Shown: one piece after another, positions 33,037 to 55,458 of the stretch
Numbering within the stretch: position 1 is the stretch's first letter
Layout: every line of letters begins with the position of its first letter
Source of the DNA: an uncultured Chloroflexia bacterium
GTDB lineage: Bacteria; Chloroflexota; Limnocylindria; QHBO01
Reading direction: 5' to 3'
Length of the DNA stretch: 64,000 nucleotides
Assembly: GCA_963825525.1 (NCBI GenBank)
Contig: CAWGTN010000002.1
Location: 1,344,001-1,408,000 of the forward strand
Position numbers and translations under genes: made by a program
The notes under the pieces: model-generated
What the model was told of the DNA's origin: nothing
Database searches by the model: none
The model's input: only the letters and a program-made list of their open reading frames with translations

Positions 33037-33071
33037 GGTCCCGATGTCACCGGGGCGGCGCACCGCGCCCT

Positions 33072-33138
33072 GCTCGATAGATCGAGCCGGATTCACGGGA
33101 GACGTGGATCCGGCTCACTTCCCTCGATCCATCGAGCC
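33072..33138. repeat. Half-unit of the CGA-N4-TCG repeat family
   Basis: CTCGATAGATCGAG (core 33075) and CTCGATCCATCGAG (core 33125), 50 nt apart. Confidence 0.65.
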
Positions 33139-33163
33139 GCCCGATCGACCGGGACGCTGACCC

Positions 33164-34123: not shown

Positions 34124-34320
34124 CCGCGCTCGGACTGACTCACCACTGGGACTACCGGCCAGTTCTTGGCCGATTTCCCCGCGCTGGGGACGAACAGCGA
34201 GGCAGAAGGGCGCAACCTGGCCGTTTCTCGCTCGCCCGTGGGAAATCCGGCCACCGGGTGGCCGTTGGTCCCACCACAGGGACAGCGCTATCGGGGCGGA
34301 GGGGCAACGGTGCAAACGCC

Positions 34321-37011: not shown

Positions 37012-37200
37012 GTGGCCGTCGATAGATCGCGGGAAATACGCGCGGAGCGCCCACTACGCGCGGAAGCTTCGATATATCGAGCGGCTTCGCGCGTGAGGTG
37101 CGCGGGGGCGTGACCTTCACGAGCGGGACCCATCGATAAATCGAACAAAGCGCACGCAGATCGTCGGCTGCGTGCAGTTCCCGCCGATCAATCGAGAGAT
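37012..37200. repeat. Four-palindrome repeat unit (50/64/51)
   Basis: CGA-N4-TCG cores at 37020, 37070, 37134, 37185. Confidence 0.8.
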
Positions 37201-39269: not shown

Positions 39270-39460
39270 CGGCCCATCGATTTGTCGAGTGGAATGCCGC
39301 GGGAACCCTCCAGCTGAGTGCTGAATCCCCGATCTATCGAGTCATCGTGAGCGTGAGGGGCCCGTGGACGTGCTGGTTACGCTCAGGGTCTGCCGATATA
39401 TCGAGGGATCGACACGCAGATCATCGGCTGCGTGAAAATCCCCGCGATATATCGAAAAGC
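39270..39460. repeat. Four-palindrome repeat unit (52/64/51)
   Basis: Cores at 39278, 39330, 39394, 39445; shares hairpin CACGCAGATC(G/A)TCGGCTGCGTG with the 37.1-kb unit. Confidence 0.8.
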
Positions 39461-43650: not shown

Positions 43651-43784
43651 AGTGCCCGCACTCTAGCCGATTCCCGGTAATGGTCCGATAATCGCGCGGC
43701 GCTACGGTCACTCGAACACCGAGGCGCTCGCCGCGGGGGGCGCGACGACGACATCGGCATCTCTTCGCACAGGAGACCGGTGGA

Positions 43785-46700
43785 TTGTCGGATATCAAAT
43801 ACGCCTACCCGCTGATTCTCAACAAGGTCGCCTCGCCCCAGTACGCGACGCCGACGCTTCGCCGCGCGCGCCTTCTGGAGTGGCTGGACAAGGCGTCCGA
43901 CTGCCGCGCCGCCGTCATCGCGGCCGATGCGGGCTACGGCAAGACCACGCTGCTGTGGCAATGGGAGCGCGAAGCGCAGGTACCGGTGTACTGGTACAAG
44001 CTCGACCGCAACGATCGGGACTGGACGTTCCACATCAGCTACCTGATCGAGGCGATCAGCAAGCGCCATCGCGGATTCGGTCGGCGGGCGCACTCGATGC
44101 TGCAGCAGCTTGGCGGACCGGGATCGGCACGGCCGGGCGTCGCTGCGTACCTGCTGGCCGAAATGCACGAGCAACTGACGGAGCCGTGCACCTTCATCAT
44201 CGATGACTGGCAGTACGTGAACTCGGCCACGGAAGTTCGCGGGCTGTGGAACCAGATCCTCCGTGACGCTCCACCGACCTGCCGCTTCATCTTTGCCTCG
44301 CGGGCCAAGCCGGGACTTCAATTCGCACGGTTCAAGACGCACTCCGGCTACGCCGAGCTTCGAACCGATGCCCTGCGCTTCACCGAAGCCGAGATCGACG
44401 AGCTGTTCCGCGACATCTACAACGACCCGCTGGACCCGACCGAGCTCGTCGAGCTGGAGCGGCGAACGGAAGGCTGGGCCGCGTCGCTGCAGCTGGTCGA
44501 GGTCTCGCTCCGCGAGCGCACGACACCCGAGGGCCGGCGCGACTTCATCCAGTCCATCACCGCGACCACGGACAGCGACCTCTTCGACTTCCTGGCCGAG
44601 GAGGTGCTCGACCAGCAGCCCGAAGAGACGCGGAACTTCCTGCTCACCACGTCCATCCTCCAACAGATCACACCGGAGGTGGCCGAGCGGCTGGCAGGGG
44701 TGCACGACGGCCGTCGCGAGCTGACCGAGCTCGAGCACCGCGGCCTGTTCACGAGTCGCCTGGACGAGGAGCGGTTCCGATACCACAACCTGTTCCGCGA
44801 GTTCCTCGAGCGGCGGCTCATCAGCGAGCGCTCGGAGGCGGAGGTCATCGGCCTGCATATTCACGCGGCCTCCTACTTCGAGACGACGGAGCAGTGGCCC
44901 GAGGCCATCCATCACTACCTGCGAGCCGGCCTCCACCGTCAGGCCGCGCGACTCATCGCCAAGCACGGTGAGGCAGTCGCAGAAGAAGGTCGGCTTGGGC
45001 TCGTGGACGTCTGGATCCGTCAGCTCCCCGCGGAGGCAATCCGACAGAACGCGCGATTGAGCCTCCTATTTGGAGAGACGTCGGGCATGCGGGGCGACTG
45101 GGATCTCGCCCTTCAGGCGCTCACCCGAGCTCGAGCCTATTTTCAGAAGAAGGGTGACAAGCGGCTTGAGTCGCTAGCGTGCTTGAAGCTCAGTTCCGTC
45201 TATTCGAACTACGGCGACAGCGAATTGTCAGCCGGTATCGCGGAGTCGGGCGCTGCCCTCGTTCCTGCTGATGCAGTCGGAACCCGGCTACGACTCGAGG
45301 GCAACCTCGCCATCACCAAGCTGTGGTCGGCGCAACCATACGATCTCGTTGTAAGGGAGTGTCAACGCATCGCAGTGGAGGCCGCGGCTAGAGGTTTCGA
45401 TCACTTTGCTGCGATCGCCCTTCACAATGCGGGCGGCATTCAACTCAGGATGGGACGTGCCCAGGAGGCCGTGACCAACCTTGAAAAGGCTGCAAAATTT
45501 TGGTCGGGCACACCCACGAATCCATTTGCCGACAACTCCGAACTAGTCGGCGCACTGCTCGTAGCCGGACGTGCCGACCAGGCGCGGAAGATCGCAGTGG
45601 AAGCTGTAGAGAGAACACGGCCATGGCCACGACCTCACAGTGATGCGCTCTACGGGCATGCCGCTGTGTTGCTGCACGAGGGCCTGTTCGACTCCGCGGT
45701 CGCGGCGCTTAACGAGGCCGCAGCAACGCCCGCAGTCCTCGGAGCCGCTCACGGCCCAACTCATGCTCGTCTAGTTGAGGCGCTCTACCTCGCTGAGGCT
45801 GAGCCGTCAGTGATCCTCGATTGTTGTCAGTCGCTCAATGCGGGACCCGTCGATTCGCGTTACTCATCCGAGATTGCCCCCGCTGTAGGTATCGGAGTGC
45901 ACTTAGCCGGAGGCTGCGGAAAACGCTGCCAAGACGGCTTGGCCGGTCTGCACCAGTCGGCGGCTCAGGGCGGCCAGTTTCTCGCTATCACTGGAGCCGT
46001 CAAGCTGGGCGTGCTTGGCCTCGATCACGGTGGAAAACGGGATGTCATTGCAGCGTGGCAAGCGGTCGCGCTTGCCGACCAGCACGGCTACTTGCCAATC
46101 CTGAAGTGGTGGGTCAGACGCTACGTGTCGACATCGAGGGCCGCCGTTAGTCTGCCGAACGGAGCGGACCTGATTGCTCGCCTTGTCGAGGCTGACCCGG
46201 AAGGGTGGCGGATCCCGGCCGCTCAACTCCTCCCGCTCCTGTCAGGAGCCGCGCGGTCCACCGTCCTGTCCTGCGTAGCTCGGTATGCCAATCGGGAAAC
46301 GGTGGATGCCCTGAGCGATGTGCCCGGCCAGGACGTGCTCGAAATACGCCAAGCGCTTCGCACATCCCAGGCAGCTCGTCTCTTCCTGCGAACGATGGGG
46401 GGCATCAGTCTCAGGCGTGGGTCATGGGACGGTCCGGCAGTGCACATCGCGAAGCGGCGTGTTCGCGCTCTACTCGCTGTCTTGGCCGCGCATTCGCACA
46501 CCATCCTGACGCGCGACCAAGCGCTGGATCTCTTGTGGCCAGACGCGGATGCGGACTCTGCGATCAACAGTTTGAACCAGACGGTCTTCCAGCTTCGCCG
46601 ACACCTCGACCCCGGGTACAGGGGAGGGGAGAGTCCGGAATACATCATGAGTTCAGCGGAGTCGGTGGGACTGTCCTCTGACTTGATTCGAACTGACGTC

Positions 46701-47138
46701 GATGAGATCAAGCGACTTGCGCTGCGGCTCACCACAGCAAGTTGGGTTGAACGGCAGGGTGTTGCGCGCCGCCTCACTCACCTCGTTAGGGGGGAGTTTC
46801 TCGCGGACCTGCGCTACGAGTCTTGGGCATCCCGCCTCCAGGGACAGGTGCACCAGTACGTTCGATCGTGCCTGCTGCCGATCGCCAACGGAGCAGGCTC
46901 GTCATATGACAACGATGTTGCTCTTGAGGCCGCCTCGGCCCTGGTGAGCATCGATCCATTCGATGAGGCCGCGACATTAGCCTTGGCCGAATGCCTCTCT
47001 GCGGGGGGACGTCGTGTGGCGGCGCGCGACCTCCTATTGGACTTTGCAAGGCTCATACGGGACGAGCTGGACGAACCGCCGTCAGAAGCCGTCGAGCGAG
47101 CAGCCGAGCGAAACGGGACCGCTGCTATCAAGTCCTAG
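43785..47138 (+). CDS. Large MalT-like STAND ATPase / TPR regulator with C-terminal winged HTH + BTAD
   Basis: Walker A ADAGYGKT, Walker B FIIDD, TEGW, LFDFLAEEV, RYHNLF; C-terminal LLWPD...LRRHL and DPFDE. Confidence 0.85.
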   Translation: MSDIKYAYPLILNKVASPQYATPTLRRARLLEWLDKASDCRAAVIAADAGYGKTTLLWQWEREAQVPVYWYKLDRNDRDWTFHISYLIEAISKRHRGFGRRAHSMLQQLGGPGSARPGVAAYLLAEMHEQLTEPCTFIIDDWQYVNSATEVRGLWNQILRDAPPTCRFIFASRAKPGLQFARFKTHSGYAELRTDALRFTEAEIDELFRDIYNDPLDPTELVELERRTEGWAASLQLVEVSLRERTTPEGRRDFIQSITATTDSDLFDFLAEEVLDQQPEETRNFLLTTSILQQITPEVAERLAGVHDGRRELTELEHRGLFTSRLDEERFRYHNLFREFLERRLISERSEAEVIGLHIHAASYFETTEQWPEAIHHYLRAGLHRQAARLIAKHGEAVAEEGRLGLVDVWIRQLPAEAIRQNARLSLLFGETSGMRGDWDLALQALTRARAYFQKKGDKRLESLACLKLSSVYSNYGDSELSAGIAESGAALVPADAVGTRLRLEGNLAITKLWSAQPYDLVVRECQRIAVEAAARGFDHFAAIALHNAGGIQLRMGRAQEAVTNLEKAAKFWSGTPTNPFADNSELVGALLVAGRADQARKIAVEAVERTRPWPRPHSDALYGHAAVLLHEGLFDSAVAALNEAAATPAVLGAAHGPTHARLVEALYLAEAEPSVILDCCQSLNAGPVDSRYSSEIAPAVGIGVHLAGGCGKRCQDGLAGLHQSAAQGGQFLAITGAVKLGVLGLDHGGKRDVIAAWQAVALADQHGYLPILKWWVRRYVSTSRAAVSLPNGADLIARLVEADPEGWRIPAAQLLPLLSGAARSTVLSCVARYANRETVDALSDVPGQDVLEIRQALRTSQAARLFLRTMGGISLRRGSWDGPAVHIAKRRVRALLAVLAAHSHTILTRDQALDLLWPDADADSAINSLNQTVFQLRRHLDPGYRGGESPEYIMSSAESVGLSSDLIRTDVDEIKRLALRLTTASWVERQGVARRLTHLVRGEFLADLRYESWASRLQGQVHQYVRSCLLPIANGAGSSYDNDVALEAASALVSIDPFDEAATLALAECLSAGGRRVAARDLLLDFARLIRDELDEPPSEAVERAAERNGTAAIKS

Positions 47139-51504: not shown

Positions 51505-51689
51505 GCGCGAGCCGATGTTTCGGCTGCCGCGTGGCCCTGAAGCCGTCGCCGGCGCCCCTGCGCCGATATTTCAGGCGCCCGTCCTCGTGAGACGCGCCCC
51601 GGGGCGCCCTCCACGCTCACCACCGACCGAAATATCGGCGGCACGGCGCCTGAGGAACCCGGAGGCCACCGCCCGGCCGAAATATCGGC
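51505..51689. repeat. Four-palindrome unit (51/64/50), direct repeat copy 1
   Basis: Cores at 51513, 51564 (imperfect), 51628, 51678; 51549-51689 aligns without gaps to 52544-52684. Confidence 0.88.
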
Positions 51690-51728
51690 GTCGGGCGTCT
51701 TGGCACTCCGGGGACCGACCCGGCCTGC

Positions 51729-52427
51729 TCAGCCCACGGTCTGCGGCATTCTCCGCGGACGGATCCACAGCAATCCGTCGGCTCCCAGTGGCCGACCGCC
51801 TCTGATGGCGCCCAGCACCTCTCGTGATGTCCCGGGGAGTGCGGTCCCCACGAGCCGAGCGTGGGGCTCAAGGGCTGCGCGATTCCGCCTCGTGTCCTCG
51901 ACGGCCATGACCAGACGCACCGGCCGTTCGTGGCGCGCGGCGAGGTAGTCTCGCTTCTGCACGTTGCGCCGATACTGCGCCTGGAAGTCGACCAGCCTTC
52001 GGTCGATCTCGATGTCGATGATCTCGAGCGGGCCGTAGAGCACGACATCGCATGCCTCCCCGTGCTCGCCGGCGGGCAACTCGAGCGCCACGGTCCAATG
52101 CTGGGTGGCCAAGCGTCGGATGTGTTCCGCAACGGTGAGCTGACCGCTGTCGCGGAGGCCGATCGGGCGGGCGCGGTAGGCGCGCAGAACGATGTCGATC
52201 CCCACGGCTTGCCCCACCGCGCAGATCGTGGAGATGCTGACGCCGGGCTCGCCAAACTCCACGCGGCGCTCGGTGTCGGGCGAGACACCGGCTCTCCGGC
52301 TCGCGGTCACGCGAGTCATTGCCTGCTCCACCCGAGCGAGACGAATCTCCTGGCCGATCGACCCCGCCTGCGCGCGAGCCCGGCGTGCCCCGGCCCTCCG
52401 CTGGCTGGGGCGTGTGACGTGAGCCAT
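51729..52427 (-). CDS. XRE-type HTH + restriction-endonuclease-like domain protein (paralog A)
   Basis: IRLAR..AGVS..RVE.G HTH; E...D...EID acidic motif; DFQAQYRR. Confidence 0.75.
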   Translation of the reverse strand: MAHVTRPSQRRAGARRARAQAGSIGQEIRLARVEQAMTRVTASRRAGVSPDTERRVEFGEPGVSISTICAVGQAVGIDIVLRAYRARPIGLRDSGQLTVAEHIRRLATQHWTVALELPAGEHGEACDVVLYGPLEIIDIEIDRRLVDFQAQYRRNVQKRDYLAARHERPVRLVMAVEDTRRNRAALEPHARLVGTALPGTSREVLGAIRGGRPLGADGLLWIRPRRMPQTVG

Positions 52428-52500
52428 TCGGTGATCTTGCCGATGGGGACGTATCCGCGGCTTACCGGCGGGTTGTTCGGAATGGGCTTTCGGCCGTTTC

Positions 52501-52684
52501 CGGCGCGCCGATATCTCGGCCGCTTCGTGGCCTGGGCTTGATTCCGGCGCCCCTGCGCCGATATTTCATGCGCCGGTCCTCGTGAGAGGAGCCCCGGGGC
52601 GCCCTCCACGCTCACCACCGACCGAAATATCGGCGGCACGGCGCCTGAGGAACGCTCGGGCCACCCCCCGGCCGATATATCGGC
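52501..52684. repeat. Four-palindrome unit (50/64/50), direct repeat copy 2
   Basis: Cores at 52509, 52559 (imperfect), 52623, 52673. Confidence 0.88.
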
Positions 52685-52803
52685 CCGCGGCGAAGCGCCT
52701 AACCGTCACAGTGTTGTACGGAATCCGGACAGGTGCCATACTCACGCGGCTGCTCATCCCTGCGGGTTGACGAGCGCACCCACCACTGGAGGGCGGAATT
52801 CAG

Positions 52804-54290
52804 TTGGCCGAGACTCAGCGATCCGTGCTTGTCGTCGACGATGACGCCGATATCCGCAAGCTGCTCGAGGACCTCCTGACCGAGGAGGGTTACGCGGTCC
52901 GCCTGGCACCCGACCGGCGCCGAGGCGGCCGAACAGATCACCGCGGACCTCCCGGACCTCGTGCTGATGGACGTCAAGCTCCCCGACCAGGACGGCATCA
53001 CCCTGCTTCGGCAGCTGAAGCGCGAGCACAGCGAGCTCGAGGTCATCGTGATGACCGCGTTCGGCGGCAGCTCGAGCGCCATCAAGGCCATGGAGCACGG
53101 GCGCGTATGACTACGTCACGAAGCCCTTCGAGATCGACGACCTGCTGGCCACCTTCAAGCGCGTGTTCGAGCACGCCGACATGAGCAACGAGGTCAGCGC
53201 CCTTCGCCTCGAGCTCGGCAAGCGCGAAGCCGAGCGCGAGCGGATCGTCGGCAGCAGCAAGCCGATGCTCGAGGTCTTCAAGCTCATCGGCAAGGTGGCC
53301 CCGTCGGACGCAACCGTCCTGATCACCGGGGAGTCGGGCACCGGCAAGGAGCTCATCGCCGAGGCGCTGCATCGGGCCAGCAAGCGCAACCCGCATCCGC
53401 TCGTCAAGGTGAGCTGCGCCGCGCTGCCGGAGTCGCTGCTGGAGACCGAGCTGTTCGGCCACGAGAAGGGCTCGTTCACCGGCGCCATGACCATGCGCAA
53501 GGGCCGATTCGAGAGCGCCAACAAGGGCACGATCTTCCTCGACGAGATCGGCGAGATGACGCTGGGCACCCAGACCAAGCTGCTGCGCATCCTCCAGGAG
53601 CGCGAGTTCGAGCGCATCGGCTCCAACACGCCGATCAAGATCGACATTCGCGTCATCACGGCCACGAACCGCAACCTCGCCGATGAGGTCAAGAACGGCA
53701 AGTTCCGCGAGGACCTCTACTACCGGCTGAACGTCATCCACATCCACATGCCGCCGCTGCGCGAGCGCAAGGACGACATTCCGCTGCTGGTCGAGCACTT
53801 CCTGGTGAAGTTCCGTCACGCGGCGGGTGCCATCCCCACGGCCATCAGCGAGGAGGCGCTCGAGCGGCTGGTCGACCACGACTGGCCCGGCAACGTGCGC
53901 GAGCTCGAGAACGCGATCGAGCGGGCCGTGGTGCTGTCGCGGGGCAACCCGATCACGGTTGAGCACCTGCCGTTCAGCGAGGATCGCGGGGCCCCGGAGC
54001 GTGCCACGTTCGCGGAACGGCGAACCAAGCTCGAGGGTGACGAGGCCGCGCTCTCCGGTCGGCGCGACGCCCTCGACGCGGACGAGGCCGACGCCGATGC
54101 GCGGGACGCCGCCGACACCGAATCGAACGGCGATGGTGCGTTCAAGGCGCAGGTGTCGGCGCTCGAGCGACAGCTGATCAAGGAGGCCCTGGATCGGGCC
54201 GGCGGGAACCGCTCGAAGGCCGCCGAAGACCTCGGGATCTATCGGCGCCTCCTGTACGCCAAGATCAAGGAATACGGGCTGGGCGAGTAG
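52804..54290 (+). CDS. Sigma-54-dependent NtrC-family response regulator (frameshifts near 52920 and 53100)
   Basis: Receiver VLVVDDD / DVKLP / KPF; GESGTGKE, GSFTGA, FLDEI, FREDLYYRL, WPGNVREL, Fis-type HTH. Confidence 0.9.
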
Positions 54291-54344
54291 TAGTCCGGCG
54301 TTTTCGGGCTCGGGTCCGGGGCTCGGGTCCGGGGTCGGGGCTCG

Positions 54345-54530
54345 GCGTCTTCGATATATCGCGGGAAATGCACAGGAACGGTCCGCCGCCGCGCCGTTCC
54401 CTCGATACTTCGAGCGCCTCAACGCTGGAAGGGCTCGCGGGCGCGCACTTTACGCTCCGCAGCACTCGATAGATCGCGGGTTCCGCCCTCGAACACGCCG
54501 CCAAGTGACAATCCCGCGATCTATCGAGCT
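54345..54530. repeat. Four-palindrome repeat unit (51/64/50)
   Basis: Cores at 54352, 54403, 54467, 54517. Confidence 0.8.
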
Positions 54531-54582
54531 GAGCGGAACCTGGTAAGCGGCCGAAAATTGGCGCCCGCCACACTTCCAAGGC

Positions 54583-55284
54583 ATGAGATCCCGTAGCAGC
54601 CGACGAAGAGCGCGCGTGCAGAGCGAACGCATCGGCGCAGAGATCACGCTCGCGCGGACGACGTTGGCGATGTCGGCGGAGCGGGTTGCCGCGAGAGCCG
54701 GCGTATCGTCGTCGACGGTGTGGCGGATCGAGCGCGGAGAACCGGGCCTGACGCTCACCTCCATTTCCGCCGTGGCCGAGGCCGTCGGACTCGACCTCGT
54801 GCTCCGGGTGTACCCCGGAACCCCGCCTTCACTGAGGGACACGGGACAGCTCGAGCTCGCTGAGCTCATCGTCACCCGCGCCGCGCCGACTTGGCAGCCG
54901 ACGATCGAGCTGCTGGTCGGTCAGCACGGTGAGTCCATCGACCTTGCGCTGTTCGGCTCACTCGAGGTTTGGGCCGTGGAGATCGAGCGCATGGCAACGG
55001 ACTTCCAGGCTCAGTATCGAAGGGCCGATCAGAAGCGAACGACGTTGGCGGCGGGGCATCAGCGCCAGACGCGTCTCGTGATGGTGGTCGAGGACTCGCG
55101 TCAGAATCGGCGGGTGATGGGAGCGCACCGGGATCTGATCGGACGAGCGCTTCCGGCGGGCTCGCGCGAGATCTTCCAGGCACTGGAACGCGGCGTGCCG
55201 CTGGGCCGCGACGGGCTGCTGTGGGTTCGCCGGCCTCGCAGGCCTCGCAGGGCTGGGCCAATCCCAGCGGGGTCTACTCGATAG
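54583..55284 (+). CDS. XRE-type HTH + restriction-endonuclease-like domain protein (paralog B)
   Basis: Shares LRD[ST]GQL, DFQAQYRR..QKR, RLVM.VED.R.NR and DGLLW with paralog A. Confidence 0.78.
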   Translation: MRSRSSRRRARVQSERIGAEITLARTTLAMSAERVAARAGVSSSTVWRIERGEPGLTLTSISAVAEAVGLDLVLRVYPGTPPSLRDTGQLELAELIVTRAAPTWQPTIELLVGQHGESIDLALFGSLEVWAVEIERMATDFQAQYRRADQKRTTLAAGHQRQTRLVMVVEDSRQNRRVMGAHRDLIGRALPAGSREIFQALERGVPLGRDGLLWVRRPRRPRRAGPIPAGSTR

Positions 55285-55458
55285 ATCGAGTGCAAGTGCA
55301 CGTGAGGGCCCGTCTGAGTGCCGTTCCCGCGATATATCGACTGTCGCTACGCTTAAGCCGCACTCGGACGGGCGCTGCACGCTCCCAGCCCTCCGATATA
55401 TCGAAGGAACGCCGCGCGGATCGGCCTCTATGGGAACTGCCCGCGATTTATCGAGAGA
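55274..55458. repeat. Four-palindrome repeat unit (51/64/50)
   Basis: Cores at 55279, 55330, 55394, 55444; the first core contains the stop codon of paralog B. Confidence 0.8.

Follow-up and report, generated by a model that had tools for sequence, protein, structure and literature searches.

REPIN-RAYT systems combine a low-copy enzyme gene with dispersed, diverse extragenic palindromic repeats that flank it. In two accounts of these systems (10.1101/2021.07.10.451892, PMC3733652), the paralogs are repeat-specific, the gene occupies a constant site and is not carried on plasmids, and the repeats decay or vanish without the gene; one of them (PMC3733652) also notes orphan palindromic repeat families that lack a known transposase. 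Here, we describe a comparable arrangement in a 64,000-nt stretch of DNA (the window) from an uncultured Chloroflexia bacterium belonging to a soil group of Chloroflexota, positions 1,344,001 to 1,408,000 of contig CAWGTN010000002.1, which is contig C2 of an assembly (G000) of 2.58 Mb in 4 contigs with 68% G+C. Two paralogous genes of the window, A and B, encode a helix-turn-helix (HTH) domain of the XRE type joined to a putative nuclease domain, and each is bracketed by repeat units of ~ 175 bp that contain four short palindromic cores. The explanation we favor, with a probability of roughly 55%, is a RAYT/REPIN-like system of repeat and enzyme with an unrelated enzyme, wired into the DNA-uptake and recombination programme, in which host recombination copies the repeats. 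No description of this nuclease/repeat system was found in the literature searched, which comprised mostly abstracts, with subscription journals and supplements outside its scope, and the available part of the Minerva preprint (10.64898/2026.09.22.753630) held nothing on it.

As in REPIN-RAYT, dispersed extragenic repeats flank the enzyme gene at this locus and are paralog-specific. As to the constancy of the gene's position, in a protein tree of the family built by a quick method, from which 4 fragments of 79 loci were excluded, the clade of gene A (clade A) occupies one site, site A, in 8/9 loci, yet site B is held by three subclades. A plasmid search for the family, of limited sensitivity, returned no match. 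Unlike in REPIN-RAYT, the enzyme combines XRE-HTH with a PD-(D/E)XK fold, and 89 aligned members gave no Pfam match to the HUH/Y1 tyrosine transposase (IS200/605 type). The repeats differ as well, since the unit here measures 175 bp, its four cores keep a fixed spacing, and it has neither a GTAG/CGTC tag nor hairpin covariation; it is present in tens of copies rather than hundreds and occupies divergent gaps too, and the enzyme genes have a promoter motif in common with uptake genes. An analogy with RAYT/REP had been proposed in a first-pass annotation of this DNA, and the dispersed family, empty sites, co-occurrence, subtype match, and fold reported below all support it.

Gene A (51729..52427, minus strand) has repeat units of the C subtype (CCGA..TCGG) downstream at 51511..51689, with cores at 51513, 51564, 51628, and 51678, and upstream at 52507..52684, with cores at 52509, 52559, 52623, and 52673. 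The units of gene B (54583..55284, plus strand) are of the T/G subtype (TCGA/GCGA) and lie upstream at 54350..54528, with cores at 54352, 54403, 54467, and 54517, and at 55277..55455, overlapping the stop of the gene, with cores at 55279, 55330, 55394, and 55444; no strand was assigned to any of the units. All 16 cores stand where the first-pass annotation had placed them. The fixed 50/64/50 geometry it described was upheld for the central spacing, which is 64 in all four units, while the outer left spacing is 51 in three and 50 in one (51/64/50, 50/64/50, 51/64/50, and 51/64/50 in the order above). The 141-nt direct repeat claimed for the units of gene A (51549-51689 and 52544-52684) is likewise present, with 93% identity, and the cores at 51564 and 52559 are imperfect (CGATATTTCA). 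The consensus of the unit is two-fold symmetric with side motifs at fixed positions. Central spacing is 64 in G000, 62 in G014, and 63 at two clade-D loci.

While these units do bracket both genes, they are not confined to them. A genome-wide search for core quartets with this spacing, which the first-pass annotation had named as a check, recovered a dispersed intergenic family of 28 chains by the spacing rule and 31 units after profile matches were added, with four of them at genes A and B. On contig C2, 17 chains of at least three cores at unit spacing were found, compared with 0 in each of three order-6 Markov simulations, and core-to-core distances cluster at 50-51, 64-65, 114-115, and 164-165; the quartet spacing is not due to chance. 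Copies are ~ 55–60% identical to each other and sit among ordinary genes, for example between rplA and rplJ or between atpA and atpG (gene names assigned by eye). According to rough gene calls, on which all gene orientations around units rest, 18 of the 31 units lie in tandem gaps, 7 in divergent gaps, and 6 in convergent gaps, against a background of 876, 318, and 133. Spacer counts of single cores outside units, evaluated as an avoidance check, were highly uneven. A further intergenic family, of 15 members, was rejected as tRNA genes, by eye.

Proteins A (232 aa) and B (233 aa) are 51% identical over 203 aa. Pfam and NCBIfam identified XRE-HTH alone in both, and the sole nuclease family among the 25 that Pfam listed for the 89 aligned members was REase_MTES_1575 (2 members, E 0.015). 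A structure model of protein B built from the alignment (pLDDT 95, compared with only 42 for a single-sequence model) has the XRE-HTH at residues 5-79 and a PD-(D/E)XK fold at residues 88-218. The latter domain matches NucS (2vld) with Z 11.0 and an rmsd of 2.8 over 101 aligned residues, followed by EndoMS (5gke, Z 10.0), AF1548 (Z 9.6), XisH (Z 9.2), and Can2 (Z 8.3); Foldseek by itself gave HTH matches and no nuclease match. By this model, the restriction-endonuclease core fold is present in the C-terminal domain, and the "restriction-like" domain next to an HTH that had been proposed from the letters alone is borne out by the model and the NucS match. The nuclease domains of NucS/EndoMS, XisH, and Can2/Card1 are the best structural matches of residues 85-220, yet at 7–16% identity the likeness is one of fold only, and HTH fusion and flanking repeats were seen in none of them in this analysis. 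Among the aligned sequences, E109 is conserved in 317/317, D120 in 318/318, E133 as E or D in 315/316, and K151 in 312/313. Four of five far members have a canonical ExK at 133-135, and the alignment register is therefore fixed. Position 135 is E or D, with the conserved lysine at 151 rather than at the canonical ExK site, and two further paralogs of G000, x1459 and x149, do have ExK.

The HTH domain is nearest to those of HipB and C-proteins. A homodimer of the family protein is supported by structure prediction: it scores 0.57, whereas the best of 3 controls scores 0.00, contacts agree to 88%, and pLDDT is 84 or higher; the mark it reached is attained by 20/30 solved pairs and 1/23 single chains. 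Because the interface is a HipB-like strand swap, the pass may reflect likeness to HipB dimers. The N-terminal XRE-HTH with its predicted strand-swap dimer thus resembles HipB antitoxins and restriction-modification C-proteins, both of which bind short palindromes. Unlike in those systems, no HipA kinase or methyltransferase stands beside the genes, and the nuclease belongs to the same polypeptide as the HTH. The family was found in 14/15 and 14/15 genomes of two families and in 0/270 other genomes of the phylum searched (1e-12), with up to nine paralogs per genome, and its close homologs carry the source labels Candidatus Limnocylindria or Chloroflexota. An additional scan of genome contigs yielded one locus. 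PADLOC returned no match beyond the HTH, and no viral contigs were identified by single-protein patterns, a search of limited sensitivity.

We then compared units and genes across genomes, including two unpublished ones: G034 (loci L006, L060, L148, L162, and L314, and also part of the co-occurrence, subtype, motif, and regulator counts) and G083 (one of 30 rplA-rplJ loci). Co-occurrence of quartets with paralogs, a further check named in the first-pass annotation, was observed in the 36 genomes of the genus, where units are present in 19/19 with an intact close homolog and in 11/17 without one. In the six unit-free genomes of the genus the close homolog is absent or frameshifted, and units were found in 0/24 genomes of other genera from the same draw. 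Three of the 11 genomes with units and no intact close homolog lack the region in their assembly. Missing family genes in G005, G013, G022, and G012 say little, because the first three assemblies are without the whole cassette region (a cassette being unit, gene, and unit) and the last has only its left part. Across the 79 family loci, the unit flanks 20/24 other close-clade loci and 0/49 distant-clade loci. Distant loci often have a flank repeat of their own (17/48, 16 of them direct, vs 2/48 mismatched controls). At 11/11 loci that could be measured, the two flanks of a gene resemble each other in direct and not in inverted orientation (median 72% vs 57%). The base outside the core tracks the gene, being C for clade A and T/G for B1: genome-wide C/T counts are 3/24, 1/21, and 0/9 in B1 genomes, and 9/1, 19/0, 7/0, 3/0, 22/1, 61/0, and 5/0 in seven genomes with clade A and without B1. 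The suggestion that each protein has its own palindrome variant agrees with this, save in G035 and G018.

G000 contains six HTH-nuclease genes and four repeat families in all. Paralog C (G000:C2:2005822-2006502), x1459 (G000:C2:1459813-1460529), and x149 (G000:C2:149653-150372) each adjoin a separate intergenic repeat family, with 13, 13, and 4 members, respectively. The cores of the paralog C family are GGCCA..TGGCC, 93 apart; one unit of this second family, cognate to the distant paralog C, lies in the window at 34148..34274 (no strand) and is absent at that site in G084 and G017. The site of paralog C itself, upstream of a ribonucleotide-reductase-like gene (by eye), is occupied by three distant clades in relatives. 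Both x1459 and x149 encode XRE-HTH and a predicted nuclease with canonical ExK behind the promoter motif described below, and the repeat adjoining x149 is a tandem one that covers the 3' end of the gene. A further XRE-HTH and nuclease gene with the same motif lies at G000:C1:57298-57978.

Orthologous loci, where the first-pass annotation had advised looking for empty sites, show units and whole cassettes present or absent across relatives. Between rplA and rplJ, 4 of 30 loci have a unit (with differing sequences), 2 have other repeats, and 24 are empty, including those of the two closest relatives. G084 and G004 have cassette A, which is missing from G017, G020, and G029. Cassette B is missing from G084, where 2 nt separate the flanks, from G017 (34 nt), and from G004 (64 nt), and other DNA is found at its site in G020 and G029. 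G084 has 16 distinct unit sites, of which 2 are without synteny and 1 is site A; when the 13 others were compared with G000, 7 were empty, 3 had a unit of other sequence, and 3 were unresolved. The insert at L093, the one clean empty site, measures 185 nt, begins directly after a stop codon, and has no target-site duplication. Most near-identical copies are tandem neighbours or lie no more than 5 kb apart, and for three such pairs the start of the shared stretch falls at most 3 nt from an outer core. Sequence comparison shows the repeats to be lineage-specific intergenic insertions, derived mostly from local duplication ending at outer cores. Kilobases of other genes are often found at unit sites in relatives. 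The contigs of 4 DNA runs span both cassettes, with no credible excision joint among the matches listed.

A direct repeat, GTAA-N7-GTAA, in two or three copies with an 11-bp period, was observed ~ 25–45 nt before the start of most family genes. We evaluated it with a matrix trained solely on 48 family promoters of other genomes, which at a cut-off of 10 bits gave 49 sites in G000. Gene A has the variant GTAA-N7-GATA at 52449..52466 on the minus strand (14.7 bits, rank 26/49 genome-wide), and gene B has the motif at 54542..54559 on the plus strand (15.2 bits, rank 25/49), followed by a -10-like CACACT at 54569-54574 with the start 9 nt later, and its transcript is probably leaderless. The top 28 sites include those of ssb, comF, radA, recA, radC, recJ, two uvrD-like copies, comEA-comEC, and pcrA/uvrD, amounting to 10 uptake/recombination promoters, together with all six HTH-nuclease genes and a 1117-aa regulator of the window; the comM-dprA site ranks 39/49. 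Domains of the motif-bearing genes were confirmed by Pfam, and we take the names radA, comF, comM, and comEA from these domains as presumptive. Of 20 regions upstream of comM-dprA (17 from genomes of the families f1 and f3, one from family f2, one too short, and one without comM), the motif is present in 17/17 f1/f3 genomes with enough DNA, at 9.6–21.9 bits (antisense at most 6.5), and not in the f2 genome (-6.2 bits). The reverse test, which is partly circular, found at least 9 bits in 64/72 family upstream regions, compared with 1/72 antisense and 53/2350 G000 genes. Judged by these scores, the family genes share the promoter element of comEA, comEC, comF, dprA, comM, and recA, and this shared motif is a new element that goes beyond what the first-pass annotation had seen. 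The motif is weak at ruvB, recN, recG, uvrC, and dinB (regex-labelled), and lexA of G000 has a GAAC-N4-GTTC box and no GTAA motif. Strong sites at C2:252550, 813029, and 137969, before rplS-rnhB and in or near two dnaE-like loci (names by eye), may extend the regulon past uptake functions.

The motif-bearing regulator is an AAA-TPR-Trans_reg_C-BTAD protein of 1117 aa at 43785..47138 on the plus strand, preceded by the motif at 43676..43693 on the same strand (21.9 bits). Its motif was also found upstream, at 19 bits or more, in 15/17 other genomes having the N-terminus. The regulator is present in 19/36 f1, 9/11 f3, and 0/11 f2 genomes, and several relatives have stops inside the match. SARP proteins recognise directly repeated 11-bp units that cover the -35 region (PMC10972967), which makes this protein a candidate autoregulated, SARP-type activator of the motif regulon. 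Like SARP regulators, it has Trans_reg_C and BTAD, and the 11-bp direct-repeat motif fits; unlike in SARP regulators, these domains are C-terminal behind AAA and TPR, and the predicted targets are uptake genes, not antibiotic clusters.

Several other features of the window and the genome were noted. Two dispersed units of the T/G subtype, found by spacing rule and profile, lie in the window at 37020..37195, without an adjoining nuclease gene, and at 39280..39455, a position occupied in G084 by two C-subtype units that differ in sequence; a partial unit with two cores 50 apart lies at 33051..33147 (no strand for all three). Between the two cassettes, at 52804-54290, is a gene for a sigma-54-type response regulator whose first third looks frameshifted, likely by long-read indels. 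Two other palindromic repeat types were found directly behind the rplA stop codon, at L060 (G034) and L072, and the rplA-rplJ site therefore appears to be reused by several repeat families. At G000:C1:17277-17671, an unrelated site, lies a 397-bp, 98.5% copy of C2:1466401-1466797, comprising a unit and, on its two ends, ~ 110 nt each of the atpG-side and atpA-side flanks; it may stem from a duplication centred on the unit or from an assembly error. At G000:C3:61926-66676, two 95% identical units 4.6 kb apart enclose a large gene for an ATPase-type regulator together with a second gene, through either local duplication or insertion of cargo at a unit. Family gene sites of relatives cluster at C2:1.395-1.432 Mb and 1.98-2.007 Mb; the former has dnaA (C2:1519855) ~ 100 kb away and a Flp/Tad pilus cluster nearby.

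In the RAYT/REPIN-like system that we propose, the motif regulon would be turned on, with the SARP-type regulator (43785-47138) as its probable activator. HipB-like dimers would then bind the four palindromic cores in double-stranded DNA, the nuclease domains would cut at or near the unit, and host repair by RecA/DprA/ComM (or Ku) would copy or re-insert it; G000 has RecA, DprA, ComM, and two Ku genes. Copies retaining cores and spacing would go on being copied while their spacers drift. The gene would be kept at few sites, with slow gain, loss, or replacement, and its flanks would be homogenised by duplication or conversion.

A number of observations weigh against this proposal. Binding, cutting, induction, and movement of units are steps that we infer; a hydrolytic nuclease without integrase chemistry would need host help for unit insertion, and its activity is itself presumed, given a lysine at 151, off the canonical ExK position. 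G010, an assembly of 9 contigs that is 86% complete, contains 20 or more units, no family gene was found in it, and its sites A and B hold other genes; 4/24 close-clade loci have no recognisable unit. The Fisher p of 0.006 for the co-occurrence is overstated because the genomes are related. The two flanks of gene B are 58% alike, no more than dispersed copies are. T-subtype units prevail in G035 (3/14), where a B1 gene was not found, and G018 combines the two subtypes (14/6) with a single B2 gene. Finally, about one third of the top motif sites precede genes without a link to uptake; what the motif marks could therefore be a broader stress programme, and "competence-like" is the safe wording for it.

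A more specific possibility, which we put forward tentatively, is a transformation-driven gene drive, in which sequence-specific nucleases expressed only at DNA uptake bias recombination of incoming with resident DNA toward the allele bearing the unit, with the units serving as four-site pads. Were this true, pads, and at times the gene, would spread and withstand removal by transformation, and several independent nuclease/pad pairs would compete within one chromosome.

It is less probable, and on balance unlikely, that the family serves the host as a recombination aid. The protein would then be a competence factor comparable to CoiA or YraN, its cuts at units initiating or resolving the integration of incoming DNA; units would be recombination hotspots or kin tags maintained by host-level selection, and their spread a by-product. 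CoiA and YraN are PD-(D/E)XK nucleases that resolve the transformation D-loop and are co-expressed with the transformation machinery (PMC13663708), and the promoter motif shared with uptake genes, common to close and distant clades in the partly circular test above, is the corresponding feature here. The kilobases of other genes at unit sites in relatives and the absence of plasmid or viral matches, at the limited sensitivity of those searches, would also fit. However, as described there (PMC13663708), CoiA and YraN are structure-specific, helicase-partnered, and single-copy, whereas this family has XRE-HTH, many paralogs, and cognate repeats, and none of the 89 members matched their Pfam families. 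Well-assembled G017 and G020 keep dprA and its motif but are without the close clade and units, ~ 30 copies are few for an uptake tag, and as many as nine divergent paralogs per genome, all with separate repeats, are more reminiscent of competing elements than of one housekeeping function.

We consider it distinctly unlikely that the cassette of unit, gene, and unit is the mobile element and that dispersed units are solo remnants of recombination between its direct repeats. The direct flanks would suit such an origin, as would site B with its three subclades, a site near C2:2006.6k with three distant clades, and the single unit at site B in G010. The constancy of clade A at site A, near-identical gene-free unit pairs in tandem or within 5 kb, and the 24–27 solo units, which would demand equally many cassette visits, all speak against it. 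Unlike an insertion sequence or MITE, the family has no transposase domain in 89 members and direct flanks, and no target duplication was seen at L093.

Nor does it seem at all probable that units are mainly operator or sink arrays, through which the protein regulates itself, organises DNA, or is held in check in an addiction-like manner, and that cutting does not spread them. An HTH nearest to HipB and C-proteins, a unit directly upstream of each promoter, and units in divergent, tandem, and convergent gaps alike (by rough gene calls) could all be read in this way, but lineage-specific gain at unrelated housekeeping loci, copy ends at outer cores, and near-invariant catalytic residues would be left unexplained, and PADLOC added nothing beyond the HTH.

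Slimmest of all are the chances of units acting as folded single strands, whether RNA, as the first-pass annotation had offered as its alternative, or single-stranded DNA as in RAYT: the symmetric consensus would let invariant motifs pair, incoming transforming DNA is single-stranded, and real copies reach slightly lower folding energies (-89 kcal/mol, compared with -77 for block chimeras; n=9, a weak control), but units are not excluded from divergent gaps, and within-copy arm complementarity equals between-copy complementarity at fixed subtype (0.509 vs 0.519 for 16 copies, 0.523 vs 0.548 for 14, and 0.430 vs 0.437 for 5). An early within-copy excess over the whole unit (0.497 vs 0.469, p 0.026) vanished once subtypes were separated. 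RNAalifold on 24 copies gave a consensus of -3.4 kcal/mol with a covariation term of -0.2, and Rfam gave no family and one chance match, unlike what is seen for structured non-coding RNA. Lacking hairpin covariation, the unit therefore reads as a duplex DNA binding array of fixed geometry, and the RNA alternative finds no backing.

For the origin and persistence of long bacterial palindromic repeats that lack a known transposase, a RAYT/REPIN-like system of the kind proposed here would offer a second, unrelated enzyme class. With six genes and four repeat families, one genome provides natural cognate and non-cognate pairs in which specificity is directly testable, and the proteins themselves may be small sequence-specific nucleases with retargeted HTH domains. 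The promoter motif outlines a competence-like regulon and its candidate regulator in an uncultured Chloroflexota lineage. The tie to uptake genes would connect the spread of repeats with natural transformation, which is usually viewed as a purge of mobile DNA.

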